Assembly (NCBI GenBank): GCA_038874655.1
Contig: JAVZBY010000002.1
Coordinates: forward strand, 1 to 24,000
Length of the DNA: 24,000 nt
Direction: 5' to 3'
Source of the DNA: Candidatus Woesearchaeota archaeon
GTDB taxonomy: Archaea > Nanobdellota > Nanobdellia > Woesearchaeales > GW2011-AR15
Shown: positions 3,917 to 23,796 of the stretch, piece by piece
How positions within the stretch are numbered: the first letter of the stretch is position 1
How the letters are laid out: each line of letters begins with the position of its first letter
Made by a program: the position numbers and the translations under genes
The notes under the pieces: generated by a model
Database searches by the model: none
Told to the model about the DNA's origin: nothing
What the model saw: the letters and a program-made list of their open reading frames with translations, nothing else

Positions 3917-4477
3917 TTGTTTTTTTTTAATCTTGTGAAACAAAAAAATAAACTCTTTTTTGAAATTAGAAAAACAAACTTTTTTTTTAGATTACTTATT
4001 TTTTTGTTGTTATTCTATTTTATTTTTAAAGGAATTGCAGTTTTAGTAATTTTAATAACTCTCTCTATAGGATTAAGTTATTTAATAAATTCACTAAAAA
4101 TTAGATCTCTTGGTATAGAATTAATAACATTTATTGCAGTTTTATCAGGGATGAGATTTGGTTGGAAACTTTCTTTTATAATAACTTTTATATTGATTAC
4201 ATATCATCTAATTGCAGGAGGCTTTCTTGGAACCTATATCTTTTGGGTAATTCCTGCATATTGTTTAGCTGCGATTATTTCAAGTTTTTTTCCCCATGCT
4301 GATATCACAACATTAGGGATAATTATGACACTTGGAATTAATTTAAATAATATCTTCTTTACATCAATAACCAATATTGAATATTTACCAAAATATATGA
4401 TATATGTTATAACAAACATAATTTTTAATTTTTTATTATTTACAATTTTTGGGAAAATTTTTTTACTTTTGATGTAA
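3917..4477 (+). CDS. polytopic membrane protein, unknown function (non-ATG start likely)
   Basis: Five to six hydrophobic segments. The first in-frame ATG is codon 79, after two predicted TM helices, so a TTG (3917) or GTG (3935) start is needed to keep them. It resembles the ORF at 14996..15610 (shared ...V(I/L)TN(I/S)II... end and a basic loop before G-I-(E/N)). Confidence 0.5.
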   Translation: MFFFNLVKQKNKLFFEIRKTNFFFRLLIFLLLFYFIFKGIAVLVILITLSIGLSYLINSLKIRSLGIELITFIAVLSGMRFGWKLSFIITFILITYHLIAGGFLGTYIFWVIPAYCLAAIISSFFPHADITTLGIIMTLGINLNNIFFTSITNIEYLPKYMIYVITNIIFNFLLFTIFGKIFLLLM

Positions 4478-8121: not shown

Positions 8122-9543
8122 CTAAGGCATTAATGGTAATTGTAAAATAATTAATAATGCTGCAACAATAGAAGTTATTAAAGTTACAAAAAATCCATAT
8201 TTAATCCATGTTTTAAAACCTATATGTTCATAACCCCTTTTTTGTAAAATTCCTAAAGCAACAATATTTGCAGTACTTCCTATGTGTGTTAGATTCCCAA
8301 AAAAAGTTCCTGCAAAAAGCATTATCCACCATAAAGGAAAACCCATAGTAGGATCTAAGGATATTATATCCTTAACAATTGGAACCATAATAGCAACAGC
8401 TAAGACATTATCTAAAACAGCACTTAATAAACCACCAATTATCATAATAATAATAATTGTTTTTATAATATTATCACCTGTAATATTTCTTAAATTTTTG
8501 CTTAAGATATCAATAACACCTGTATATTCTAATGAACCTACAGAAGCAAACAAGAATATAAAAAATACAAGTGTCCACCAATCAACTCGTCTTTCAATTA
8601 ATTCAGCAGCTTTATCTTTTTCAATAAGCATTGCAATTCCAGCTCCAAACATAGCAAAACCTATTAACATAGTATTTTTCTCTAAATGTAGCATTTTTTC
8701 CACATTTGAATGAAAAACCAACCCTAAAAAAATCAAGCCAAATAAAATAGATGATAAAATTAAATTTTCACCCTCCATCATTGTTTCTTGTCTTTTTTTC
8801 TTTTTAGAATGTTTTATTTTATTTTCCAACTCAGATATTTCATTTTTAAAAAATAAAAAAAACAATCCAATAGTTATACTTAAAGCAATAAAACTTATAG
8901 GAGCAGCCCACCTTAGGAAGTCAGAAAAAGTCAAACCCCCATTTAATGCTACCATAACACCAACAGGATTACCAACAACAGTAGCACTACTGCCAATATT
9001 TGTAGCAAAAACAGTCATTAAAATAAAAGGAATTGGATTTAACTTATACTTGTTTGTTAAATGTAGTATAATAGAAACCATAATTATTATAGAAGTTACC
9101 TCGTCAATAATAGCTGCAGAGATTGCTGAAACAAGCATTAAAATTATAATTAATAATTTAGGATTATTCCCTACTTTATTTATTATTTTTCCAATAATAA
9201 ACTCAAAAAATTTGCTTTTTTCTAAAAAACCGACAAAAACCATCATACTAATCAAAAACAAGATTATATCAAAATGTGCAAACTCTAATAAACTTTTTAT
9301 GTCAATAACATTAAATGCCAATAACAATCCAATTCCAACAAAAGCAAATGACAATCTTCTATTCCAAAATAAGAATGTTGTAGATATTAAAACCACAATA
9401 ATCATCATAGAAATTGATTGCTTTGTTTGAAAACCAATAAACTTTGTAAAATAATAAACAAAAAAAACTAATATAAACAGAAAAAGATACTTTTTCCAGT
9501 TTTTACTGATTAAATTTAAATTTTCTTGATATTTTGAAAACAT
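8122..9543 (-). CDS. ion-transporter-superfamily permease (ArsB/NhaD/CitMHS-like)
   Basis: 473 aa with about 10-12 TM segments in two halves split by a charged loop (KHSKKKKRQETMMEGE). The two halves carry matching hairpin-like motifs, NIGSSATVVGNPVGVMVA and GNLTHIGSTANIVALG. The substrate is not inferable. Confidence 0.55.
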   Translation of the reverse strand: MFSKYQENLNLISKNWKKYLFLFILVFFVYYFTKFIGFQTKQSISMMIIVVLISTTFLFWNRRLSFAFVGIGLLLAFNVIDIKSLLEFAHFDIILFLISMMVFVGFLEKSKFFEFIIGKIINKVGNNPKLLIIILMLVSAISAAIIDEVTSIIIMVSIILHLTNKYKLNPIPFILMTVFATNIGSSATVVGNPVGVMVALNGGLTFSDFLRWAAPISFIALSITIGLFFLFFKNEISELENKIKHSKKKKRQETMMEGENLILSSILFGLIFLGLVFHSNVEKMLHLEKNTMLIGFAMFGAGIAMLIEKDKAAELIERRVDWWTLVFFIFLFASVGSLEYTGVIDILSKNLRNITGDNIIKTIIIIMIIGGLLSAVLDNVLAVAIMVPIVKDIISLDPTMGFPLWWIMLFAGTFFGNLTHIGSTANIVALGILQKRGYEHIGFKTWIKYGFFVTLITSIVAALLIILQLPLMP

Positions 9544-10054: not shown

Positions 10055-10510
10055 ATGGCAAGAATGCATTCAAGAAGAAAAGGTAAATCAGGAAGCAAAA
10101 AACCATCTAAAAAAAGCACATATTCCTGGATGAGTTATAAGCCAAAAGAAATAGAAATGTTAATCATAAAATTAGCAAAAGAAGGAAATACACCATCAAA
10201 AATCGGTTTAATTCTAAGAGACACTTATGGTATTCCAGATGTAAAAGCAATTTTAAAGAAAAATATCTCAGATATTTTAGAGAAAAAAGAATTATTGCCT
10301 AAAGTTCCAGAAAATTTAGCAGCATTATTAAAAAGAGTAATTGACTTACAAAAACACTTGGAAAATAACAAAAAAGACCAAGTTGCAAAAAGAGGTCTAT
10401 TACTTACAGAATCCAAAATAAGAAGACTAGTAAAATATTACAAAAAGACAGGAAAATTACCAGAATCCTGGAACTATGATCCAGCAAGAGTAAAATTATT
10501 AATTGAATAA
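10055..10510 (+). CDS. rps15: 30S ribosomal protein uS15 (archaeal S15P/S13e type)
   Basis: MARMHSRRKGKSGSKKP N-terminus, 151 aa, with ...KDQVAKRGLLLTESKIRRLVKYYKKTGKLP. The SD GAGGT lies at 10044..10048. Confidence 0.95.
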   Translation: MARMHSRRKGKSGSKKPSKKSTYSWMSYKPKEIEMLIIKLAKEGNTPSKIGLILRDTYGIPDVKAILKKNISDILEKKELLPKVPENLAALLKRVIDLQKHLENNKKDQVAKRGLLLTESKIRRLVKYYKKTGKLPESWNYDPARVKLLIE

Positions 10511-10520
10511 ACTTAAACAA

Positions 10521-11924
10521 ATGGTTTATTCAAATTTTTTTTCTTTTCTTAAAGAAGTTTCTGAAAAATTTAAAAAAATAGACAAATCTGAAACTATAAG
10601 ATTAATAAGCCATCATGATGCAGATGGTATTTGCTCAGCTTCTATAATGATTAGAGCATTAGAAAATGAAAACTACAAATATAATTTGTCTATAATAAAA
10701 CAATTAACAGAAATAGAATTAAAACAATATCAAAATGAAAATTACAATAACTATGTTTTTACAGATTTGGGTTCTGGGCAATATAATTTAATAAAAAAAT
10801 ATCTTGCTAAAAAAACAATTTTTATTTTTGACCATCACACTTTTGATTTAAATTTATTGAAAAATAATTCTGAAAATATAATAATGGTTAATCCTCATAT
10901 GTTTAATATTGATGGTTCAAGTGAAATATCAGGCTCAGGTGTTACCTATTTATTTGCACAAACCCTAAATGAAAAAAACAAAGAATTAAGTTATTTAGCA
11001 ATAATTGGTTCACTTGGGGATGTTCAAGAAAGTAATGGCTTTACCTCATTAAATAAATATATTTTGGATATAGCAATAAATCAAGGCAAAATAAAAATTG
11101 AAAAAAATTTAAAGTATTATGGTTTGGAAACAAAACCTATATATTATTTGTTAGCATATGGAGATATTTATATTCCTAATATATCAGGTAAGGAAAGCAA
11201 TGCAATACAATTTTTGAATGAGATTGGTATTGAACCAAAAATAAATGGTAAATGGAAAAAATTCAATGATTTAAATGAAAAAGAAAAAAAGCAATTAATA
11301 AGTTCAATCATAATAAAAAGAGGCTCACTTCAAGAACCTGAGAATATTATAGGAAACAGATATTTATTAGTTGATGAGCCAGAATCAAGTTCGTTAAGAG
11401 ATTTAAAAGAATTTGCTACATTAATAAATGCATGTGGCAGACTTGAAAAAGCTTCTTTGGGCATTGGTTTATGTTTAAATAATCCAGAATTGAAAAAAAA
11501 AGCATTACAATTACAAGATGAATATAAAAAAGAAATAATAAATGCCCTAAATTGGTATGAAAAAAACAATTCTCAACACATAATAAAATCAGAAAAATAC
11601 ATTATAATTAATGCAAAAAATAACATTATGCCTTCTATAATTGGGACAATAGCTTCTATTATCTCAAACTCAGATATTCCAATTGGAACATTAGTTTTAG
11701 CATTAGCATATGATAATGATTCAATAAAAGCATCTCTTAGAATAAAAACATCGCCTGAAAAAAAAGAAACCCTAAATTTAAGAGACTTTTTAGTAAAGCT
11801 TTCTGAAAAGACGGGTTGTCAAGCAGGTGGTCATAAAAACGCAGCAGGTGCTATTATTCCAAAGGAAAAAGAGCAATTATTTATAGATGAATTTATTAAA
11901 CTTATAGAACTTGAGAATTCATAA
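10521..11924 (+). CDS. RecJ-like DHH/DHHA1 phosphoesterase (archaeal GAN/Cdc45-RecJ family candidate)
   Basis: DHH motif I is SHHDADGICSA, motif II FTDLGSG, motif III IFIFDHH, and the DHHA1 motif is QAGGHKNAAGA. It starts 10 nt after the rps15 stop. I prefer the ATG at 10521 over the track's TTG at 10503. Confidence 0.8.
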   Translation: MVYSNFFSFLKEVSEKFKKIDKSETIRLISHHDADGICSASIMIRALENENYKYNLSIIKQLTEIELKQYQNENYNNYVFTDLGSGQYNLIKKYLAKKTIFIFDHHTFDLNLLKNNSENIIMVNPHMFNIDGSSEISGSGVTYLFAQTLNEKNKELSYLAIIGSLGDVQESNGFTSLNKYILDIAINQGKIKIEKNLKYYGLETKPIYYLLAYGDIYIPNISGKESNAIQFLNEIGIEPKINGKWKKFNDLNEKEKKQLISSIIIKRGSLQEPENIIGNRYLLVDEPESSSLRDLKEFATLINACGRLEKASLGIGLCLNNPELKKKALQLQDEYKKEIINALNWYEKNNSQHIIKSEKYIIINAKNNIMPSIIGTIASIISNSDIPIGTLVLALAYDNDSIKASLRIKTSPEKKETLNLRDFLVKLSEKTGCQAGGHKNAAGAIIPKEKEQLFIDEFIKLIELENS

Positions 11925-13471: not shown

Positions 13472-14764
13472 TTAATTTTTTATCTCTTTTTTATGACTTT
13501 GTTTATGTGATATTTCTTTTAAATTAGTCTTTAAATTATTATTTTCTTTATTATCATTATTATTATTTTTCAAAATAAAATAATCATATATAAATACTAA
13601 TACAGAGCTTAAAATTATAGAGAATAATATTGAGGATAATGTAATCATTATAAGATTATTAACCTCTTTGAATTGAGAAAAAAATTCTGATTTTAATGTC
13701 AATTGCGCTAAAACAGCTGGAGCCAATCCTTTTGGAGTTAAAATATTCATAAAGGTTCTATCTCTATTACTTATCTCTTTTGGCACAGAAATCTTGACAA
13801 TGTAAGGTCTTGTTATTGCAATTAAAATAGTAATTAAAAGTCCAATTAATAATAATACTATATTTGAGAAACTTATAATAATTCCCAAATAAACAAAGAA
13901 AAACACTTTCAAGAAAAATGATATTTCTGAATAAAAATTTTTTTCTGACTCATGTATAGAATATTCAGGTTCTTTACCAAAAAAAGTAAAAATTTTTTTA
14001 AAATTGCCTAAAAATATTCCAAAAGATAAAATTGCAATTGCACCATTTGCTTTAAAAAATTCAGCAAAAACATAAATTAAAATCATGTAAGCAATACTTA
14101 TCATATATGCTTTGTTAATTTGTTGAAATTTTTGTCTCAAAGCAATCCATAACCAGCCAGAGATAAAACCGATCATTAACGCAATAAAAAAAGTGCTTAA
14201 AATACTAACTATCGTATTAACAAAATCAAAATGATTAATCTTTATAATTTCTGCTATTGTTATTGCCCCAACTATACATAAAACATCTGTTATTGTTGAT
14301 TCTAAAGTTAATATTAAAGTGCTTTCATTATTTAATTTTAATAATTTTGTCATAGGTATTACAACAGCACTTGAAGTGCCTCCTAAAATTGCACCTAATA
14401 AAATAGATAAATGCAATGGATATCCAAAAATAACCATAACAATACTAACAATGACAATATTGCTTAAAAAAAATAAAAAAGCCAACTTAGTTCCAGGATA
14501 GGCTGTTTTTAAAAAATCATTTAATCTTATTGATAAACTACCTTCAAAAATAATAAGTATTAAAGCTAATGTAATAAAAATAGGTTCAATTGCACTAAAA
14601 GATTCTGCCTTAATAAAACCTAAAATCGGGCCTAACAAAATACCTAATAAAAACAAAAGTAAAACATCAGGAATATGTGTTTTATCAAAAAAATACTCAG
14701 CTAAAAATCCAATAATAATAACCAAACTAAAACCAACTAAGCTTAATAATAAATTTGATTCCAT
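13472..14764 (-). CDS. cation:proton antiporter (Na+/H+ exchanger, NhaP/CPA1-like)
   Basis: About 11-12 TM segments. It has the N-terminal HIPDVLLLFLLGILLGP, then LGAILGGTSSAVVIP and LTLESTITDVLCIVGA, which occupy the positions of the conserved exchanger motifs. The C-terminal tail is N/K-rich and low in complexity. Confidence 0.7.
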   Translation of the reverse strand: MESNLLLSLVGFSLVIIIGFLAEYFFDKTHIPDVLLLFLLGILLGPILGFIKAESFSAIEPIFITLALILIIFEGSLSIRLNDFLKTAYPGTKLAFLFFLSNIVIVSIVMVIFGYPLHLSILLGAILGGTSSAVVIPMTKLLKLNNESTLILTLESTITDVLCIVGAITIAEIIKINHFDFVNTIVSILSTFFIALMIGFISGWLWIALRQKFQQINKAYMISIAYMILIYVFAEFFKANGAIAILSFGIFLGNFKKIFTFFGKEPEYSIHESEKNFYSEISFFLKVFFFVYLGIIISFSNIVLLLIGLLITILIAITRPYIVKISVPKEISNRDRTFMNILTPKGLAPAVLAQLTLKSEFFSQFKEVNNLIMITLSSILFSIILSSVLVFIYDYFILKNNNNDNKENNNLKTNLKEISHKQSHKKEIKN

Positions 14765-14995: not shown

Positions 14996-15610
14996 ATGTC
15001 ACTTTTAAAATATAATCAACTACTTAACTTTAATGATGAAAAAGATTTTCTAAAAAAAGAATTATCCTTCATAGATAAAATATTACCTTCTATAAAAAAA
15101 AATTTTATCCTTAAAATTTTAATATTTATTTTGATTTTGATTATGCTATATAAATATCATAAATTCTTTATAATAATTATTTCTATTTTGTTAATACAAT
15201 ATATAAAATTTAAAAGGACAAAACACGGAATTAATTTTGAGATAGAACCTTCTTATTTAATAGCATTAGCAATAACCTTAACATATGGTTTAGAATATGG
15301 AGTGATATTTATAATACTACCCCTAGTTTTATCTTTTTCAGGATTTAATATAGGTGTAATAGTTAATTTTTCAAATAAATTAATTTTTATAATTTCTGTT
15401 TATTTATATTGGACCTTTACAAAAAATATATTCTTTTTAACATATTTTGCCATATTTATTGTTATTTTAACTGATGTTATAGGTTTTTTTATAAGAAAGA
15501 GATTTGGACAAAATTTATTAGAAATATTACAAGTGGTTTTAACAAACTCTATAATAAGATGGATTTACTTTTCTTTTTTTCTAAATTTAATAATTAATAT
15601 AATTAAATAA
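14996..15610 (+). CDS. polytopic membrane protein, unknown function (possible paralog of 3917..4477)
   Basis: 204 aa with 5-6 hydrophobic segments and no cysteine. The basic loop KFKRTKHGINFEIE and the end VLTNSIIRWIYFSFF resemble KIRSLGIEL and VITNIIFNFLLFTIF in the other ORF. Confidence 0.5.
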   Translation: MSLLKYNQLLNFNDEKDFLKKELSFIDKILPSIKKNFILKILIFILILIMLYKYHKFFIIIISILLIQYIKFKRTKHGINFEIEPSYLIALAITLTYGLEYGVIFIILPLVLSFSGFNIGVIVNFSNKLIFIISVYLYWTFTKNIFFLTYFAIFIVILTDVIGFFIRKRFGQNLLEILQVVLTNSIIRWIYFSFFLNLIINIIK

Positions 15611-17993: not shown

Positions 17994-19832
17994 TTGTCAA
18001 CAAAATCTAAACCAATAAAAAAGAGCCATACAGAATTTCATGGTGTGGCAAGAAAAAGTAATAAAAAAACATGGATGCTAATCTCAGGTATATTAGCAAT
18101 AGCATTAATAATTTCAATATTTACAAATGGCTTTTATTTCAATAATTTAAAGTTAGCAGAAAACATTTTAAAAAAAGAATCACAAAAAATAACAAATTCA
18201 GAGGCAAAATCTAAATTAAATAATGCTTTAGAATCTTTAAGTAGTGCAATTTCTTTGATTGAATCAGAAAAAAAATCTTCAACAAGTTCTACATATACAG
18301 GAAAAAAAGTCAAACTTGAATTTTACGTTATGAGTCAATGTCCTTATGGTATTCAAGTAGAAAATGCAGTAAAGCCAGTTTTAGATAAATTAGGTGATGC
18401 TGTTGATTTTAGTATTAATTTTATAGCAACAGATTTAGGCAATGGTCAATTCCAAAGTTTACATGGACAAAATGAAGTTTTAGGAAATATTGTTCAATTG
18501 TGTGCAATGAAATATGAGCCAAAAAAATACATGGATTTAATTGTTTGTATGAATAAAAACGCAGCACAAATTCCAGATAATTGGGAATCATGTGCTAGAG
18601 AGAATGGATTAAATGTAGATAAAATAAAATCTTGTTATGTAGGAGATGAAGGAAAACAATTGCATTCTGAATCAATAAAAAAATCAGAAACAGTAAAAGC
18701 AACAGGTAGTCCTACAATGTATATCAATGGTAAACAATATAATGGTGGTCGTGATACAACCTCATTTTTTAGAGCATTATGCGCAGAAATACCAGATCAT
18801 AAAGCATGTTCAGAAATTCCAAAACCAAAAGATGTTAATTTAATAATAATAAATGATAAACAGTGTGCACAATGTCAACAATATAATTCATTAGCTGACC
18901 AATTAAAAAGTTTATTCCCAGGTTTGAAAACAAAAATATTGGACTATGAAGAACAAGAAGGACAAAAACTTTATAATGAATTAAACTTGAAATTTTTGCC
19001 TGTTTTCTTGTTTGATAAATCAGTAGAAGAAGGAGAGGGTTATAGTAATGTGCAAATGTATTTAGACAAAGTAGGGGATTACTATAGTTTAAGAATAGGT
19101 GCAAATTATGACCCAAAAGCAGAAGTTTGTAATGATGGTAAAGATAACAGAGACAATGATGGTAAAGTAGATTGTCAAGATGATGAATGTAAGAACTATT
19201 GGCAATGCATGGAAAAAAAGGATAAGCCAGAAGTACAATTATTTGTAATGAGCCATTGTCCATTTGGAACACAAATGGAAAAAGGCATTTTGCCTGTTGT
19301 TGAATTATTAGGAAACAAAATTGACTTTAAAGTAAGATTTGTATATTATGCAATGCATGGTGAAGTAGAAGTTAAAGAACAAATAAGACAATATTGCATA
19401 CAAAAGGAGCAATCTGATAAATACTTAAGCTATTTAAAATGCTTCTTAGAAGCAGGAGAAACAGATAAATGTTTAACACAAGCAAACATTGATAAGACAA
19501 AATTAGACACATGTTATGAAAAAACAGATAAAGAATTTAATGTAATGGCAAACTTCAATGATAAAACAACATGGTTAAGTGGCAGATATCCTCTATTTAA
19601 CATAGATAAACAACTAAATGAAAAATATGGTGTTCAAGGAAGTCCAACATTAGTAGTTAATGATGTTGTTGTTGAAACAGCAAGAGATCCAAATAGTTTA
19701 TTAAAAACAATTTGCACTGGTTTCAAAGAACAACCAAGTGAATGTGATAAGCAATTACCAACAACAGGATTTAGTGCAGGCTTTGGCTATAATGAAGCAG
19801 ATACTAATACATTAGCAGGTTGTGGTGTCTAA
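17994..19832 (+). CDS. membrane-anchored multi-thioredoxin-fold protein (GILT/DsbA-like module, CAQC Trx-like module, Cys/Asp-rich motif, second GILT/DsbA-like module)
   Basis: Basic N-tail followed by one TM helix (MLISGILAIALIISIF). Module A: EFYVMSQCPYG ... HGQNEVLGN..QLCA ... GSPTMYING. Module B: IIINDKQCAQCQ ... FLPVFLF. Linker: CNDGKDNRDNDGKVDCQDDEC. Module C: QLFVMSHCPFG ... GSPTLVVND. I prefer the TTG at 17994, which lies 5 nt after GGAGGGGTGG; the track's GTG at 17985 sits inside that SD. Confidence 0.75.
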   Translation: MSTKSKPIKKSHTEFHGVARKSNKKTWMLISGILAIALIISIFTNGFYFNNLKLAENILKKESQKITNSEAKSKLNNALESLSSAISLIESEKKSSTSSTYTGKKVKLEFYVMSQCPYGIQVENAVKPVLDKLGDAVDFSINFIATDLGNGQFQSLHGQNEVLGNIVQLCAMKYEPKKYMDLIVCMNKNAAQIPDNWESCARENGLNVDKIKSCYVGDEGKQLHSESIKKSETVKATGSPTMYINGKQYNGGRDTTSFFRALCAEIPDHKACSEIPKPKDVNLIIINDKQCAQCQQYNSLADQLKSLFPGLKTKILDYEEQEGQKLYNELNLKFLPVFLFDKSVEEGEGYSNVQMYLDKVGDYYSLRIGANYDPKAEVCNDGKDNRDNDGKVDCQDDECKNYWQCMEKKDKPEVQLFVMSHCPFGTQMEKGILPVVELLGNKIDFKVRFVYYAMHGEVEVKEQIRQYCIQKEQSDKYLSYLKCFLEAGETDKCLTQANIDKTKLDTCYEKTDKEFNVMANFNDKTTWLSGRYPLFNIDKQLNEKYGVQGSPTLVVNDVVVETARDPNSLLKTICTGFKEQPSECDKQLPTTGFSAGFGYNEADTNTLAGCGV

Positions 19833-19868
19833 AATTTTTTTACAAAACTAAATATATGAGGAATAAAG

Positions 19869-20240
19869 ATGAAAAAAATTTATTTTTTTTTATTTTTTAT
19901 AACATTTATTCTATTTTTAAGTTCATGTTCAAAAAATAACATAGAAACAAAAAATTTAGATAATTTTGCTGAATGTATTGCAAATTCTAATGCAAAATTA
20001 TATGCAGCATTTTGGTGTCCTCATTGTAAAGAACAAAAAGAAATGTTTGGTTCTTCATGGGATAAAATAAAAGATAGAGTTTATGTTGAATGTTCAAATC
20101 CAGATAGGACACAAACAGAAATATGCAGACAACAAAACATTAGAGGTTATCCAACCTGGAAATTCTCAGATGGTTCAGAATTATTAGGAAAACAAGATTT
20201 TTACACATTAGCACAAAAAACAGGTTGTGAACTTAACTGA
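19869..20240 (+). CDS. secreted/lipobox-anchored thioredoxin-like protein (homolog of the Trx domain fused to bacterial VKOR)
   Basis: Signal peptide MKKIYFFLFFITFILFLSSC with an L-S-S-C lipobox-like site. KLYAAFWCPHCKEQKEMFG ... YVEC ... GYPTW resembles the CPHC Trx-like domain of cyanobacterial VKOR fusions. The SD GAGGA lies at 19858..19862. Confidence 0.7.
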   Translation: MKKIYFFLFFITFILFLSSCSKNNIETKNLDNFAECIANSNAKLYAAFWCPHCKEQKEMFGSSWDKIKDRVYVECSNPDRTQTEICRQQNIRGYPTWKFSDGSELLGKQDFYTLAQKTGCELN

Positions 20241-20410
20241 ATTTAGAAAATTTTATTTTATATTTATTACTTTAAGTTTATTTACTTAAAAGCGATAAGA
20301 AATCTTTATAAATAAATTCTTTTCATTTCATTAAATACAAACTAAATACATAGTATATTAAAAAAATTCATAAAAAATTTTAAAAATAACTTTTTTTAAT
20401 TGGTGAAAAC

Positions 20411-20650
20411 ATGGCTAAACTCTATAAAGTAAGAAAGAAATGTATGATATGTGGAAATGTATTTTACCCAAAATATGCTGGCTCACTTTATTGTGAGGAT
20501 TGTAAAAAAAAAAAGAAAGAAGAAGCAAAAAAACAAAAAAAATTGGAAGAAAAACAAAAAAAAGAAAAAAAATCTCCAAAAACAAAAAAACCTAAAAAAG
20601 AATTAACTAAACAAAAAATTAGTAAGAAATCAAAAACTAAAAGAAAATAG
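20411..20650 (+). CDS. zinc-ribbon protein with a poly-lysine tail
   Basis: CMICGNVFYPKYAGSLYCEDC (CxxC-x15-CxxC) is followed by about 50 aa that are mostly K/E. The SD GGTGA lies at 20402..20406. The gene contains an A11 run at 20497..20507. Confidence 0.6.
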   Translation: MAKLYKVRKKCMICGNVFYPKYAGSLYCEDCKKKKKEEAKKQKKLEEKQKKEKKSPKTKKPKKELTKQKISKKSKTKRK

Positions 20651-20787
20651 TTTTATTAGTTTTAAAATAAGCAGTTTATAAAAAAATAATCCCCCTAATT
20701 TTCAAAACCTTTTTAGTAGTTCTTATTTTTAATTTTCTATATCACAACTCCGTTTTATTTTTAAATTATGTCTCTTTCTAAGATTTA

Positions 20788-21135
20788 ATGCTAAAAGTTG
20801 AAATTTTCACAAGTCCAACATGTCCTTATTGTCCTCATGCAGTAAAATTAGCAAAAGAATTATTGAAAGAAAGGAATGATTTCAAGATTGTTGAAACAAG
20901 CACAGGAACATATGAGGGAAGAAAAAGAGCAGAAAACTTTGATGTAAGAAGTGTGCCAACTTTATTTATAACAGGCCCCGGAACACAAGAAAGAATTGGT
21001 TATGTTGGAGTGCCATCAAAAAATACATTCAATAAAATGTTAGATATTGCATTAGGCAAAGAAAAATGGCCAGAACAAGAAAAAAAAGAATCAATCTTTT
21101 CAAGACTTTTTAATAAATTAAAAAGTACAAAATAA
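20788..21135 (+). CDS. thioredoxin/glutaredoxin-like protein (archaeal CPYC small redox protein)
   Basis: KVEIFTSPTCPYCPHAVKLAKELL ... VRSVPTLFI (cis-Pro loop). There is no signal peptide. The C-terminal tail is charged. Confidence 0.8.
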   Translation: MLKVEIFTSPTCPYCPHAVKLAKELLKERNDFKIVETSTGTYEGRKRAENFDVRSVPTLFITGPGTQERIGYVGVPSKNTFNKMLDIALGKEKWPEQEKKESIFSRLFNKLKSTK

Positions 21136-21207
21136 AAATAATAGTCCCTAAAAACTTAATCAAAATAAACAAAAATTAAAAAAATCAATATAATGGAGGT
21201 AATTAAA

Positions 21208-21447
21208 ATGCCAAGAGTAAAAGTTTATACTACACCAAGTTGCCCATATTGTTATATGTTAAAAGAATATTTAAGGGCTAACAAGGTTGATTTTGAGGAT
21301 GTAGATGTTTCAAGTGATTATGAAGCAGCAATGGAAATGATAGAAAAATCAGGCCAAAGAGGTGTTCCAGTAGCAGATATTGATGGCCATATTGTAGTTG
21401 GGTTTGATCAACCAAGAATTGCAAGATTATTAAATTTAAGAAGGTAA
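21208..21447 (+). CDS. glutaredoxin-like protein (NrdH/YruB-like)
   Basis: VKVYTTPSCPYCYMLKEYLRANKVDFEDVDV ... GQRGVPVADIDGHIVVGF. I prefer the ATG at 21208 because the track's upstream ATGGAGGT (21193) supplies the SD GGAGGT 7 nt before it. Confidence 0.8.
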   Translation: MPRVKVYTTPSCPYCYMLKEYLRANKVDFEDVDVSSDYEAAMEMIEKSGQRGVPVADIDGHIVVGFDQPRIARLLNLRR

Positions 21448-22311: not shown

Positions 22312-23775
22312 TTAATTTTCAATATTTTTTAAATAATCTTCTATTTTTTTCAAAACCTCTTCTTTATTTATGCTGCTAAATCTCAAAGTTCCTGCATAAT
22401 CATGACCACCGCCATCAATTAAAGCATATGGCATTTTTTCTTTTAAATAGTCTATTAATTTTATTAAACTAAAATTAACATCATCTGCTCTAAAAATTAT
22501 TGAATCTTCACTTATTACCATAGTAATTCTTTTTCCTGTAAATAAGTCATTAGTAATTCTAGGTAATTTACTTCCAATGTAATCATAATTAACAACATCT
22601 CTATTTATCTTTATTATTTTTATTCCATTAAGGTTTTCAATAACTGCGTTTTTTTCAATTGCTTTTTTAACTAAATCTTCTTTATACTTTATAAAATAAA
22701 ATATTTCTTGAATTATTTTTTCCCTTGTTTCATTATAAAAAAATAAATCATTCAATAATTCAGAGCTTTCATTAAATTTTAGATGATATAAATCATAATC
22801 AATTGCAATTGCCCATTCCTTTAATTTTTCTAAAGTAAAATTTGAAAGTTTCAAATATTCTTCATATTCATAACCATTAGATTTATCAGCAGTTCCAGAT
22901 AAAGCTGGTAAATGATTAAATTTATTTGGATTTAATTCAGGGTTAATAAAAAAAGCCAATTCTGTTGATAAAGATCCAGCATTAATTTCAGATCCGAAAT
23001 CAAAAACATGTGGATTTAAAAAAACTTTGGAAATTTCTTTATTCTCTTTATCATATTTATGATGATCAATAATAACAAAATCAAAGCCATATTTACTTAA
23101 TCTTTTTAATGAAGGATAACTTTGACTATTGCTTCCTAAATCGCACAATATAATTAATGGCGCTTTTTCATCATATTTTTCTTTTGCATCTAAATAGTCA
23201 TTTAAATCTCTTAAAGCATCAATATAATCATAATAAGGACTTCGTGATGATATTCTTGTTAAAAACAAATGGCTTTTATCATTAATCTCTTTAATTAAGG
23301 GCAAAATCGCTTTTTCTAAAATATAGCCAGACACATAACCATCAACATCATCATGATGTCTTATAATAATTGGTCTATTTTCATCTATGGTTTTTTCAAT
23401 AATTTTAGCAGCTTCTATAAACAAAGGTCTTAATTTTTCTAATTTTTCTGATTTTATTAGAAAAGGCTTTTTTTCTAAATTAATTTTTTCAATTACATTT
23501 TGATTTATTTTTTCATAATTTAAAAGTTCAACTTCAATATTTCCTAATCTCTCTTTTACTAAGATTTTTGCTTGAATATTATTTCCAATAACTAAATTAG
23601 GAAAGGCTCTTTCACCTGCTTTTAAAAAACCAGTTGCTTTAATAACACCAGTATTATCTTTTAAATCAAAAATCGTGGGCCCAGAGGTTTGCCTTATTGA
23701 TTTTACTTGTGCTATTAAAAAGTATTCTTTTCCAATCTTATCTTTGGTAATTTCTTTTATTTTTATATAATCCAT
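22312..23775 (-). CDS. DHH/DHHA1 phosphoesterase with an N-terminal OB-fold (second RecJ-like paralog)
   Basis: OB-like IAQVKSIRQTSGPTIFDLKDNTGVIKATGF...IQAKILVKE. DHH motif I is IIRHHDDVDGYVSG, motif II ILCDLGSN, motif III VIIDHHK, and the DHHA1 motif is DGGGHDYAGT. I prefer the ATG at 23775 over the track's TTG at 23790. Confidence 0.75.
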   Translation of the reverse strand: MDYIKIKEITKDKIGKEYFLIAQVKSIRQTSGPTIFDLKDNTGVIKATGFLKAGERAFPNLVIGNNIQAKILVKERLGNIEVELLNYEKINQNVIEKINLEKKPFLIKSEKLEKLRPLFIEAAKIIEKTIDENRPIIIRHHDDVDGYVSGYILEKAILPLIKEINDKSHLFLTRISSRSPYYDYIDALRDLNDYLDAKEKYDEKAPLIILCDLGSNSQSYPSLKRLSKYGFDFVIIDHHKYDKENKEISKVFLNPHVFDFGSEINAGSLSTELAFFINPELNPNKFNHLPALSGTADKSNGYEYEEYLKLSNFTLEKLKEWAIAIDYDLYHLKFNESSELLNDLFFYNETREKIIQEIFYFIKYKEDLVKKAIEKNAVIENLNGIKIIKINRDVVNYDYIGSKLPRITNDLFTGKRITMVISEDSIIFRADDVNFSLIKLIDYLKEKMPYALIDGGGHDYAGTLRFSSINKEEVLKKIEDYLKNIEN

Positions 23776-23796
23776 TTTAATTAATTTCAATTTTTT

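Follow-up and report, generated by a model that had tools for sequence, protein, structure and literature searches.

The DNA analyzed here, a stretch of 24,000 nt from a Candidatus Woesearchaeota archaeon (GenBank assembly GCA_038874655.1, contig JAVZBY010000002.1, positions 1 to 24,000; hereafter "the window"), contains a row of five genes, g1 to g5, the first two of which form a conserved two-gene cell-surface module. The protein encoded by g1 belongs to a membrane-anchored, extracytoplasmic, GILT/DsbA-like family for which no characterized member was found, and g2, judged from its sequence, is a split-off, stand-alone VKOR-type thioredoxin. The five-gene row as a whole is a lineage-specific juxtaposition and not a conserved operon or a new system. 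Our leading interpretation, in which we place somewhat less than even confidence, is that g1 and g2 make up a surface module for disulfide isomerization or reduction, resembling protein disulfide isomerase (PDI), whose membrane partner is encoded outside the window. The five genes are:

17994-19832, plus strand: g1, 612 amino acids (aa), three thioredoxin-fold modules and 21 cysteines; TTG start codon with GGAGG 9 nt ahead
19869-20240, plus strand: g2, 123 aa, thioredoxin-like, with lipobox LSSC and active-site motif CPHC; GAGGA ahead of the start
20411-20650, plus strand: g3, 79 aa, zinc ribbon (CxxC-x13-CxxC) and poly-Lys tail
20788-21135, plus strand: g4, small CPYC thioredoxin, most like the MJ0307 type
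21208-21447, plus strand: g5, CPYC, YruB-family glutaredoxin-like protein; alternative start at 21193

An initial annotation of the window had described five consecutive genes on the same strand, four of them with a thioredoxin fold, and had listed the motifs CPYG, CAQC and CPFG for g1, CPHC for g2, and CPYC for g4 and g5. The open reading frames (ORFs) on the plus strand and the profile searches agree with this description, including the zinc-ribbon/poly-Lys gene g3 (CxxC...CxxC, poly-Lys tail) between the two groups. The division into two extracytoplasmic and two cytoplasmic thiol proteins is likewise backed by signal, transmembrane and fold evidence: g1 and g2 are the only two exported proteins in the window, and neither a transmembrane segment nor a signal sequence was found in g4 and g5. 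The clustering of thioredoxin-fold genes is above chance (P ~0.007 for four genes placed randomly among the 25 genes of the window, i.e., 85 of 12,650 arrangements with all four genes inside five consecutive positions). C610 and 18 further conserved cysteines of g1 had been omitted.

The g1 protein is 100% identical to NCBI entry QXE31_01705 from a metagenome-assembled genome of Ca. Woesearchaeota, which places the organism among the DPANN archaea. A basic cytoplasmic tail (aa 1-27) precedes its membrane anchor and a helical stalk (aa 51-94) follows it, with helices predicted by an AlphaFold2 model at residues 24-42, 51-65 and 69-94. Because the N-terminus is rich in Lys and Arg, the positive-inside rule places the ectodomain outside the cell. 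The following segments were delineated:

18075..18143, plus strand: transmembrane anchor, aa 28-50, the sole hydrophobic segment
18303..18818, plus strand: domain A, aa ~104-275, GILT/DsbA-like, active site YVMSQ-C116-PYG, cis-Pro loop G-S239-P240-T241
18828..19103, plus strand: middle thioredoxin domain, aa ~279-370, C291-x-x-C294 (CAQC), cis-Pro P336
19122..19214, plus strand: acidic four-Cys linker, aa ~377-407, with C379, C394, C399 and C405
19224..19763, plus strand: domain B, aa ~411-590, second GILT/DsbA-like domain, active site FVMSH-C422-PFG, cis-Pro loop G-S550-P551-T, six more conserved cysteines
19764..19829, plus strand: flexible C-terminal tail ending in AGCGV, with the C610 codon at 19821-19823

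Profile searches support the thioredoxin-fold assignments of the initial annotation, as exemplified by the match of g1 to Pfam GILT (PF03227; 58.2 bits, cutoff 22.4, E 1.1e-15), which was accompanied by matches to Thioredoxin_4 and DSBA and to VSR_TRX, a family described as non-catalytic. Structure prediction and structural search of g1, both proposed at the time, point to the same GILT/DsbA fold. The AlphaFold2 model has a mean pLDDT (predicted local distance difference test) of 90.5 with a disordered tail, and Foldseek aligned it with mouse GILT 6NWX (E 4e-8, TM-score 0.72-0.74 normalized by target length) and with DsbA of Staphylococcus aureus (3BCI/3BD2, TM-score 0.77-0.79). In a profile search of the Protein Data Bank (PDB), too, domain A matched 6NWX, and the Gly of CP(Y/F)G in g1 aligned onto the second Cys of the CPYC site of S. 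aureus DsbA. Profile and fold thus agree with the GILT family, but the CxxC motif of that family is replaced by CPYG and CPFG; in the same way, g1 shares with the DsbA family the thioredoxin fold with helical insertion and the cis-Pro loop, but not the CxxC. The middle domain gave weak matches to Pfam Thioredoxin and to TIGR02187, a model of the protein disulfide oxidoreductases (PDO), and its profile matched the PDO structures 1A8L and 1J08. The linker, which is missing from a few homologs, weakly matches the acidic double-disulfide repeat NF033662, and its cysteines are nearly invariant.

Conservation of the active sites is unusually strict. The 231 active-site motifs present in 120 g1 homologs include a single CPYC, all the others (230) being CP[YF]G; in 116 of these homologs, the last cysteine is followed by 0-2 residues. 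Both GILT-like sites have an invariant M-S-x-C-P-(Y/F)-G and invariant G-S-P-T cis-Pro loops. The near-invariance of CP[YF]G together with that of the cis-Pro loops argues that the single-Cys site is catalytic rather than decayed. C291, C294 and P336 of the middle domain are invariant in 75 sequences, as is C610 (pLDDT <50 for residues 606-612), and domain A contains six more cysteines (170, 185, 200, 214, 263 and 272) that are invariant in alignments of 21 and 75 sequences. Nine plausible pairs can be drawn up from the sequence, accounting for 18 of the 21 cysteines and leaving over C116, C422 and C610. Short forms of g1 occur at two loci, L042 and L059, where domain A is lost and the thioredoxin CxxC domain, domain B and the tail cysteine are kept; their even number of cysteines (14) is compatible with pairing of the tail cysteine with the active-site cysteine. 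At L059 (9875-13847), the short g1 is followed by a protein of the Rcas_1661 family (228 bits, cutoff 190) with two canonical CPFC-containing DsbA-like domains and then by a fusion of a thioredoxin with a DsbD_TM-like membrane domain. A separate gene seems to have taken the place of domain A here.

The family is large and widespread. A search of 5.8 billion proteins yielded more than 1,000 g1 homologs, the named ones of which come from Woesearchaeota, Nanoarchaeota and Altiarchaeota, and a scan of GTDB, with one genome per species, revealed at least 595 loci, the closest match being 55% identical to g1. These loci include Myxococcota, Spirochaetales, Oligoflexia and a Patescibacteria genome; among the Myxococcota, a homolog is found in Anaeromyxobacter-like genomes (L035). 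Some homologs are named "GILT family protein" at NCBI; a literature search found no paper on the family. GILT was held in 2008 to be without prokaryotic homologs (PMC2398784), and a 2026 preprint states that prokaryotic disulfide pathways still have gaps. The g1 family may bear on the origin of eukaryotic GILT.

The second gene of the module matches Pfam Thioredoxin (PF00085) with 33.8 bits. A profile built from g2 and its 10 closest relatives matched the Synechococcus VKOR-thioredoxin protein 3KP9 (E 2e-26) over the thioredoxin-like domain and the preceding transmembrane helix. The cysteines C50/C53, C36/C120 and C75/C86 are invariant. The lipobox noted in the initial annotation is indeed present (LSSC), but it is restricted to the closest orthologs, and other relatives of g2 have a plain N-terminal anchor. 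An exhaustive profile search assigned 5,341 representative proteins to the g2-type family. They are mostly stand-alone proteins of 120-200 aa, and among the 150 best representatives, 109 do not reach a length of 200 aa. An N-terminal VKOR domain is present in four (P0185, P0217, P0241 and P0255) of the seven g2-type proteins of 265-296 aa that were tested, other fusions involve a SurA/PpiC isomerase or an RDD domain, and the gene of a bacterial homolog, P0132 (L090), shares 4 nt with the beginning of a stand-alone VKOR gene. With its homology and CxxC motif, g2 itself qualifies as a VKOR-associated thioredoxin-like domain, but a fused or adjacent VKOR is lacking.

Some members of the g2-type family are noteworthy in their own right. 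In the VKOR-thioredoxin fusion P0241 (286 aa), the site in transmembrane helix 4 of the VKOR domain reads CVYG instead of CxxC, echoing the CP(Y/F)G of g1. P0258 (276 aa) joins a g2-type thioredoxin to a four-helix, Cys-rich membrane domain without Pfam match, which may be an unrecognized analogue of VKOR or DsbB. At the archaeal locus L082 (6001-7163), the g2-type protein P0129 is followed by a canonical DsbA-like protein of 223 aa (Thioredoxin_4, E 5e-44), so that again a VKOR-type thioredoxin is paired with a protein of the DsbA fold; no membrane partner was found within 6 kb of this pair.

Gene order was compared among 75 g1 loci from GTDB (72 with at least 600 nt downstream) and three loci of the closest relatives. 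The gene g2 follows g1 directly, with gaps of 1-38 nt, in five loci (L005, L008 and L027, and L087 and L088 of the closest relatives), and in the window, where it starts 36 nt past the end of g1, it is probably co-transcribed with g1, as its position suggests. Clustering of all neighboring ORFs identified no neighbor family present in more than 7 of the 75 loci; the genes immediately downstream of g1 represent 81 different Pfam families, and about 10 of 72 immediate downstream neighbors are thiol-disulfide proteins. Occurrence of g3 after g1 or g2 is limited to two loci, L008 (7318-7581) and L020 (2088-2303), and its ~35 N-terminal residues are nearly identical there although the g1 proteins of these loci are only 35-42% identical. 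A g5-like YruB glutaredoxin gene is located 0.8-5.6 kb downstream of g1 in L016, L042, L059 and L063, and a g4-like gene was found once, in L026, 6 kb from g1. The five-gene functional unit that the initial annotation had suggested from adjacency is therefore not supported by the order among the g1 loci examined. Scattering in relatives, named beforehand as the observation that would speak against such a unit, applies to g3-g5 but not to the co-conserved pair g1-g2. Locus L089, from the closest relative, shows the same upstream order as the window (RecJ-like, S3Ae, Na/H exchanger, GyrB, g1), and the contig stops inside g1.

In place of g2, a fusion protein composed of a thioredoxin and a DsbD_TM-like domain is encoded immediately after g1 in L004, L009, L034 and L042, and as the next gene but one, within 1.5 kb of g1, in L059 and L014. 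Its membrane domain has six or seven helices with conserved NPC and PC motifs in transmembrane helices. Pfam DsbD_TM covers the full membrane domain with 30.5 bits (cutoff 27.1) in L034 and more weakly in the others, and an NCBIfam model of a DsbD-like transporter (ArsG-type) matched with an E value of 6.7e-10. Since such a fusion fills the slot after g1 in relatives, a known kind of conduit exists for the g1 family. In a rough neighbor-joining tree of g1, the g2-type and DsbD_TM partners are interspersed; L005, with g2, forms a sister pair with L009, which has DsbD_TM. The exchange of a VKOR-type thioredoxin for a thioredoxin-DsbD_TM fusion in one genomic slot is a testable clue to the wiring of the module.

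Further neighbors of g1 homologs concern protein export and thiol metabolism. Genes of SurA/PpiC prolyl isomerases lie directly upstream of g1 homologs in L026 (8644-9909) and L066 (106-1455), one of them with a weak thioredoxin match, and P0270 is a fusion of a SurA/PpiC-type isomerase with a g2-type thioredoxin; these associations tie g1 and g2-type proteins to extracytoplasmic folding. The richest thiol-redox neighborhood found is L016 (6739-12182), in which genes resembling, to judge from their sequences, those of cysteine desulfurase and IscU precede the g1 homolog, and genes of a six-helix membrane protein, a YruB glutaredoxin-like protein and, adjoining the latter, a thioredoxin reductase follow it. 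Five loci of DPANN archaea encode a bacterial-type prolipoprotein diacylglyceryl transferase (Lgt; TIGR00544, 231 bits, cutoff 118.9) at a distance of 0-3.6 kb from the g1 homolog:

L042, 12348-13142: Lgt near a g1 homolog
L052, 10988-11776: Lgt near a g1 homolog
L023, 3592-4530: Lgt near a g1 homolog
L059, 14784-15587: Lgt near a g1 homolog
L034, 13916-14668, minus strand: Lgt near a g1 homolog

To our knowledge, archaea do not usually have lgt. An Lgt in these organisms would make lipobox processing of g2-like proteins plausible; none is encoded in the window.

A membrane partner for the two surface proteins was sought in the window and beyond. The statement of the initial annotation that no Cys-bearing polytopic membrane conduit is present was corroborated, as was the lack of cysteine in the nearest membrane ORF, 14996-15610. 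The polytopic proteins of the window are:

3917-4477: polytopic protein, three predicted helices, one Cys, no CxxC
8122-9543: CitMHS, polytopic, no Cys, no CxxC
13472-14764: Na/H exchanger, polytopic, one Cys, no CxxC
14996-15610: polytopic protein, four predicted helices, no Cys, no CxxC

A membrane protein with two transmembrane cysteines, as used by the DsbD/CcdA pathway, is thus not encoded in the window; six-frame searches of it gave no match to VKOR or DsbD_TM-type proteins, and it contains no thioredoxin reductase gene. Neither the window nor 1.27 Mb of sequence surrounding 88 g1 and g2 loci gave a match to a VKOR hidden Markov model (HMM) at E values up to 10. When a profile built from the four VKOR domains fused to g2-type thioredoxins was run against the 5.8 billion proteins in a non-exhaustive word-index search, the named matches among the best 120 of 224 were all bacterial and none was on the source contig. 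No conduit was detected in the 0.1-10 kb of sequence available downstream of the other five g1-g2 pairs; at three of these loci the sequence breaks off 0.1-0.8 kb past g2.

Several candidate conduits were considered. ORFs 3917-4477 and 14996-15610 were rejected; they contain one and no cysteine, respectively, and have neither a Pfam or NCBIfam match nor a homolog in related loci; the latter ORF is absent from the otherwise syntenic locus L089, where the gap is 494 nt. VKOR, the four-helix domain of P0258 and the RDD domain gave no match in the window or at any locus. The six-helix protein of L016 is not supported as a conduit; it has a single cysteine, weakly matches GPDPase_memb and lacks homologs in the other loci. 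A gene for 159 aa upstream of that of the g2 homolog P0123, considered as a divergent VKOR, encodes a single transmembrane segment and is not VKOR. The initial annotation had left open whether the genes form a relay of unknown wiring or whether the missing partner is encoded elsewhere. The second possibility is now favored, because each of the two surface proteins has a known type of partner: some g2-type thioredoxins are fused or adjacent to VKOR, and some g1 homologs precede a thioredoxin-DsbD_TM fusion.

In the interpretation we prefer, g1 would be an outward-facing, PDI-like enzyme in which two single-Cys domains of the GILT/DsbA fold surround a CxxC thioredoxin domain and a further cysteine is provided by the tail. 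It would isomerize or reduce disulfides of Cys-rich surface proteins, and the mixed disulfides formed would be resolved by the CxxC domain, by C610, or by both. A lone N-terminal cysteine of a thioredoxin-type site is able to attack and shuffle disulfides, but on its own it can neither introduce them nor reduce them completely, another thiol being needed for resolution. Because the active site of g1 keeps just this cysteine, an isomerase or reductase is suggested rather than a DsbA-type oxidant. The g2 protein would serve as dedicated thioredoxin-fold partner exchanging electrons with g1. Electrons may flow from NADPH via thioredoxin reductase to a thioredoxin or glutaredoxin of the g4/g5 type, on to a DsbD_TM-type conduit, and from there via a surface thioredoxin to g1, with g4 and g5 as plausible cytoplasmic donors. 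This direction, from cytoplasm to surface, is suggested by the occurrence of a DsbD_TM-type conduit, a YruB glutaredoxin and a thioredoxin reductase nearby in relatives. Gene content, folds, motifs, conservation across the family and the neighborhood statistics are direct observations. We infer the catalytic role of g1, the direction of electron flow, the involvement of g4 and g5, and the location of the conduit elsewhere in the genome; a quinone-dependent oxidase or VKOR as partner is disfavored.

A number of points weigh against this interpretation. The window contains no DsbD_TM-type gene, no examined locus combines a g2-type thioredoxin with DsbD_TM, and the DsbD_TM scores of most fusions are near or below the curated cutoffs. 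The closest characterized relative of g2 is the thioredoxin domain of VKOR, which operates in the oxidizing direction, and the dipeptide in the CPHC motif of g2 is that of E. coli DsbA. The link of the cytoplasmic proteins to g1 is weak, with g5-type genes at 4 and g4-type genes at 1 of ~75 g1 loci. Finally, g1 and g2 need ~11 structural disulfides and hence some oxidant, which the model does not supply.

The main competing explanation is oxidative folding, which we regard as possible though less likely. Here g2, as a split VKOR-thioredoxin, would be the equivalent of the oxidant DsbA, to be re-oxidized by a VKOR (or an analogue of DsbB or MauE) encoded elsewhere; g1 would be an isomerase or a major substrate, and g3-g5 unrelated neighbors. 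The match of g2 to the thioredoxin domain of 3KP9 including the linker transmembrane helix, the VKOR domains fused to g2-type proteins in four of seven cases and the VKOR gene overlapping that of P0132, the CPHC motif common to g2 and E. coli DsbA, and the many conserved paired cysteines of g1 and g2, which require an oxidant, are all in line with this view. Moreover, VKOR adjoins surface oxidoreductases in other small-genome organisms, namely bacteria of the candidate phyla radiation (CPR; PMC6744442), which also counts in its favor. However, the VKOR HMM matched neither the window nor the 88 g1 and g2 loci, the named VKOR profile matches, taken from the best 120 of 224 of the non-exhaustive search, are bacterial, and the slot after g1 in relatives is occupied by a DsbD_TM-type fusion, a type of protein that is reductive in all characterized cases.

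It is rather unlikely that g1 is mainly a non-catalytic, Cys-rich surface protein (an adhesin, chaperone or receptor) built of redox-dead thioredoxin-fold modules, with the nearby thioredoxin genes serving its folding or being unrelated. Such modules have precedents in ERp29 and in plant vacuolar sorting receptors with their thioredoxin-like domain, and the VSR_TRX match, the missing second active-site cysteine in both GILT-like domains, the long stalk with its membrane anchor, and the lack of redox neighbors at most g1 loci would fit. But a decayed site would hardly keep a Cys, Pro and Gly and a cis-Pro loop invariant across archaea and bacteria, no variation is seen in the central CxxC and its cis-Pro either, and thiol-disulfide proteins do make up ~10 of the 72 immediate downstream neighbors. 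We are similarly doubtful that g1 represents a new class of catalyst for extracytoplasmic disulfides in organisms lacking quinones and respiratory chains, in which the two single-Cys GILT-like sites, the CxxC domain and a swinging terminal cysteine jointly make and shuffle disulfides, with g2 as an orphaned VKOR-type thioredoxin and with no DsbB-, VKOR- or DsbD-type membrane enzyme; in that case, these prokaryotic proteins would also be the closest relatives of eukaryotic GILT known so far. Least probable, in our opinion, is that g1 and an orphaned g2 form a surface relay that makes and shuffles disulfides with an external small-molecule or host-derived electron acceptor or donor (such as O2, cystine or polysulfide) in a genome devoid of DsbB, VKOR and DsbD-type proteins: the lack of a conduit in the window and in the sequenced downstream stretches of other g1-g2 loci, the mostly stand-alone g2 family, the reduced DPANN genomes without respiratory chains, and the extreme conservation of CP(Y/F)G and the terminal cysteine, suggestive of non-canonical chemistry, would agree with it, but it argues from absence in short stretches, g1 shows no cofactor-binding or other disulfide-generating domain, and relatives of g1 have an adjacent DsbD_TM-type conduit.

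As for the other genes of the row, g4 passes the cutoffs of Pfam Thioredoxin_3 (33.7 bits, cutoff 24.8) and Glutaredoxin (31.9 bits, cutoff 22.9), but scores below that of TIGR00411 (MJ0307 family; 59.4 bits, cutoff 92.75), and thus is no certified MJ0307 equivalog. The g5 protein matches TIGR02196 (YruB; 91.6 bits, cutoff 88.55), a further profile in support of the thioredoxin-fold assignments, and Pfam Glutaredoxin (64.5 bits); the ATG at 21208 behind GGAGG is its likelier start and results in 79 aa, as called in L001. The gene g3, preceded by a 170-nt AT-rich spacer of its own, has weak family matches (DUF7564, PRK00420) and does not code for a thiol-disulfide enzyme. Its product is cytoplasmic and probably binds nucleic acid.

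The window has a GC content of ~24% and also encodes informational proteins of archaeal type, namely ribosomal proteins S15 and S3Ae, GyrB and two RecJ/DHH-family proteins. The latter are distinct (10503-11924, and 22312-23790 on the minus strand), one being of the DHH-CID type and the other having an N-terminal OB fold. In L008, the ortholog of the OB-fold protein is encoded ~1 kb upstream of g1, i.e., on the opposite side as compared to the window, indicating that the neighborhood is locally rearranged. Two tandem ORFs of 219 aa each (973-1632 and 1659-2318) look, by inspection of their sequences, like paralogous HAD-type hydrolases.

As far as we know, the formation and repair of disulfides in archaeal surface proteins, notably of anaerobic DPANN archaea without respiratory chains, is largely unexplored. 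The g1 family is a real lead in this respect, since its near-invariant single-Cys GILT/DsbA site and terminal cysteine point to a mechanism unlike those of textbook DsbA, DsbC and PDI; the five-gene row is of moderate interest.

The module can be compared with several known systems. With GILT, the two large domains of g1 share the fold and the YxxSxCPY active-site context, and the GILT signature is partly kept (SLHG-x2-E-x3-N-x4-C), its first two cysteines being absent. However, GILT is a soluble lysosomal protein with a CxxC site, whereas g1 has CPYG and CPFG sites in a duplicated domain, fused to a CxxC thioredoxin domain, at the exterior of a prokaryotic membrane. With the Gram-positive DsbA proteins (S. 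aureus, 3BCI; BdbD of Bacillus subtilis, 3EU3), g1 has in common the thioredoxin fold with helical insertion, the CPY motif, the G-x-P-T loop and the membrane-tethered, extracytoplasmic location. In contrast to their CxxC, its single cysteine does not allow solo cycling of the DsbA type, and g1 comprises three modules and has no DsbB or VKOR nearby. The motifs WCPHC, YVEC and YPTW of Synechococcus VKOR-thioredoxin (3KP9, 4NV5) are the same in g2, which differs in being separate from VKOR, in having an extra conserved pair, C36-C120, and in that no VKOR is found beside any g1-g2 pair. In the DsbC/DsbG-DsbD system of E. coli and the CcdA-ResA system of Gram-positive bacteria, electrons pass from a cytoplasmic thioredoxin via a membrane domain to a surface isomerase, as proposed for g1; the architecture of DsbC/DsbG is unrelated to that of g1, the thioredoxin-DsbD_TM fusions next to g1 homologs are divergent, and the window itself encodes no such conduit. 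The N-terminal unit of the archaeal PDO (Pyrococcus furiosus, 1A8L) resembles the middle domain of g1, but PDO is cytoplasmic and g1 a surface protein. Like PDI and PDO, g1 has several thioredoxin-fold modules in one chain, its flanking modules being of the DsbA/GILT type and not plain thioredoxin. Variants of PDI that possess the first active-site cysteine only keep isomerase activity.

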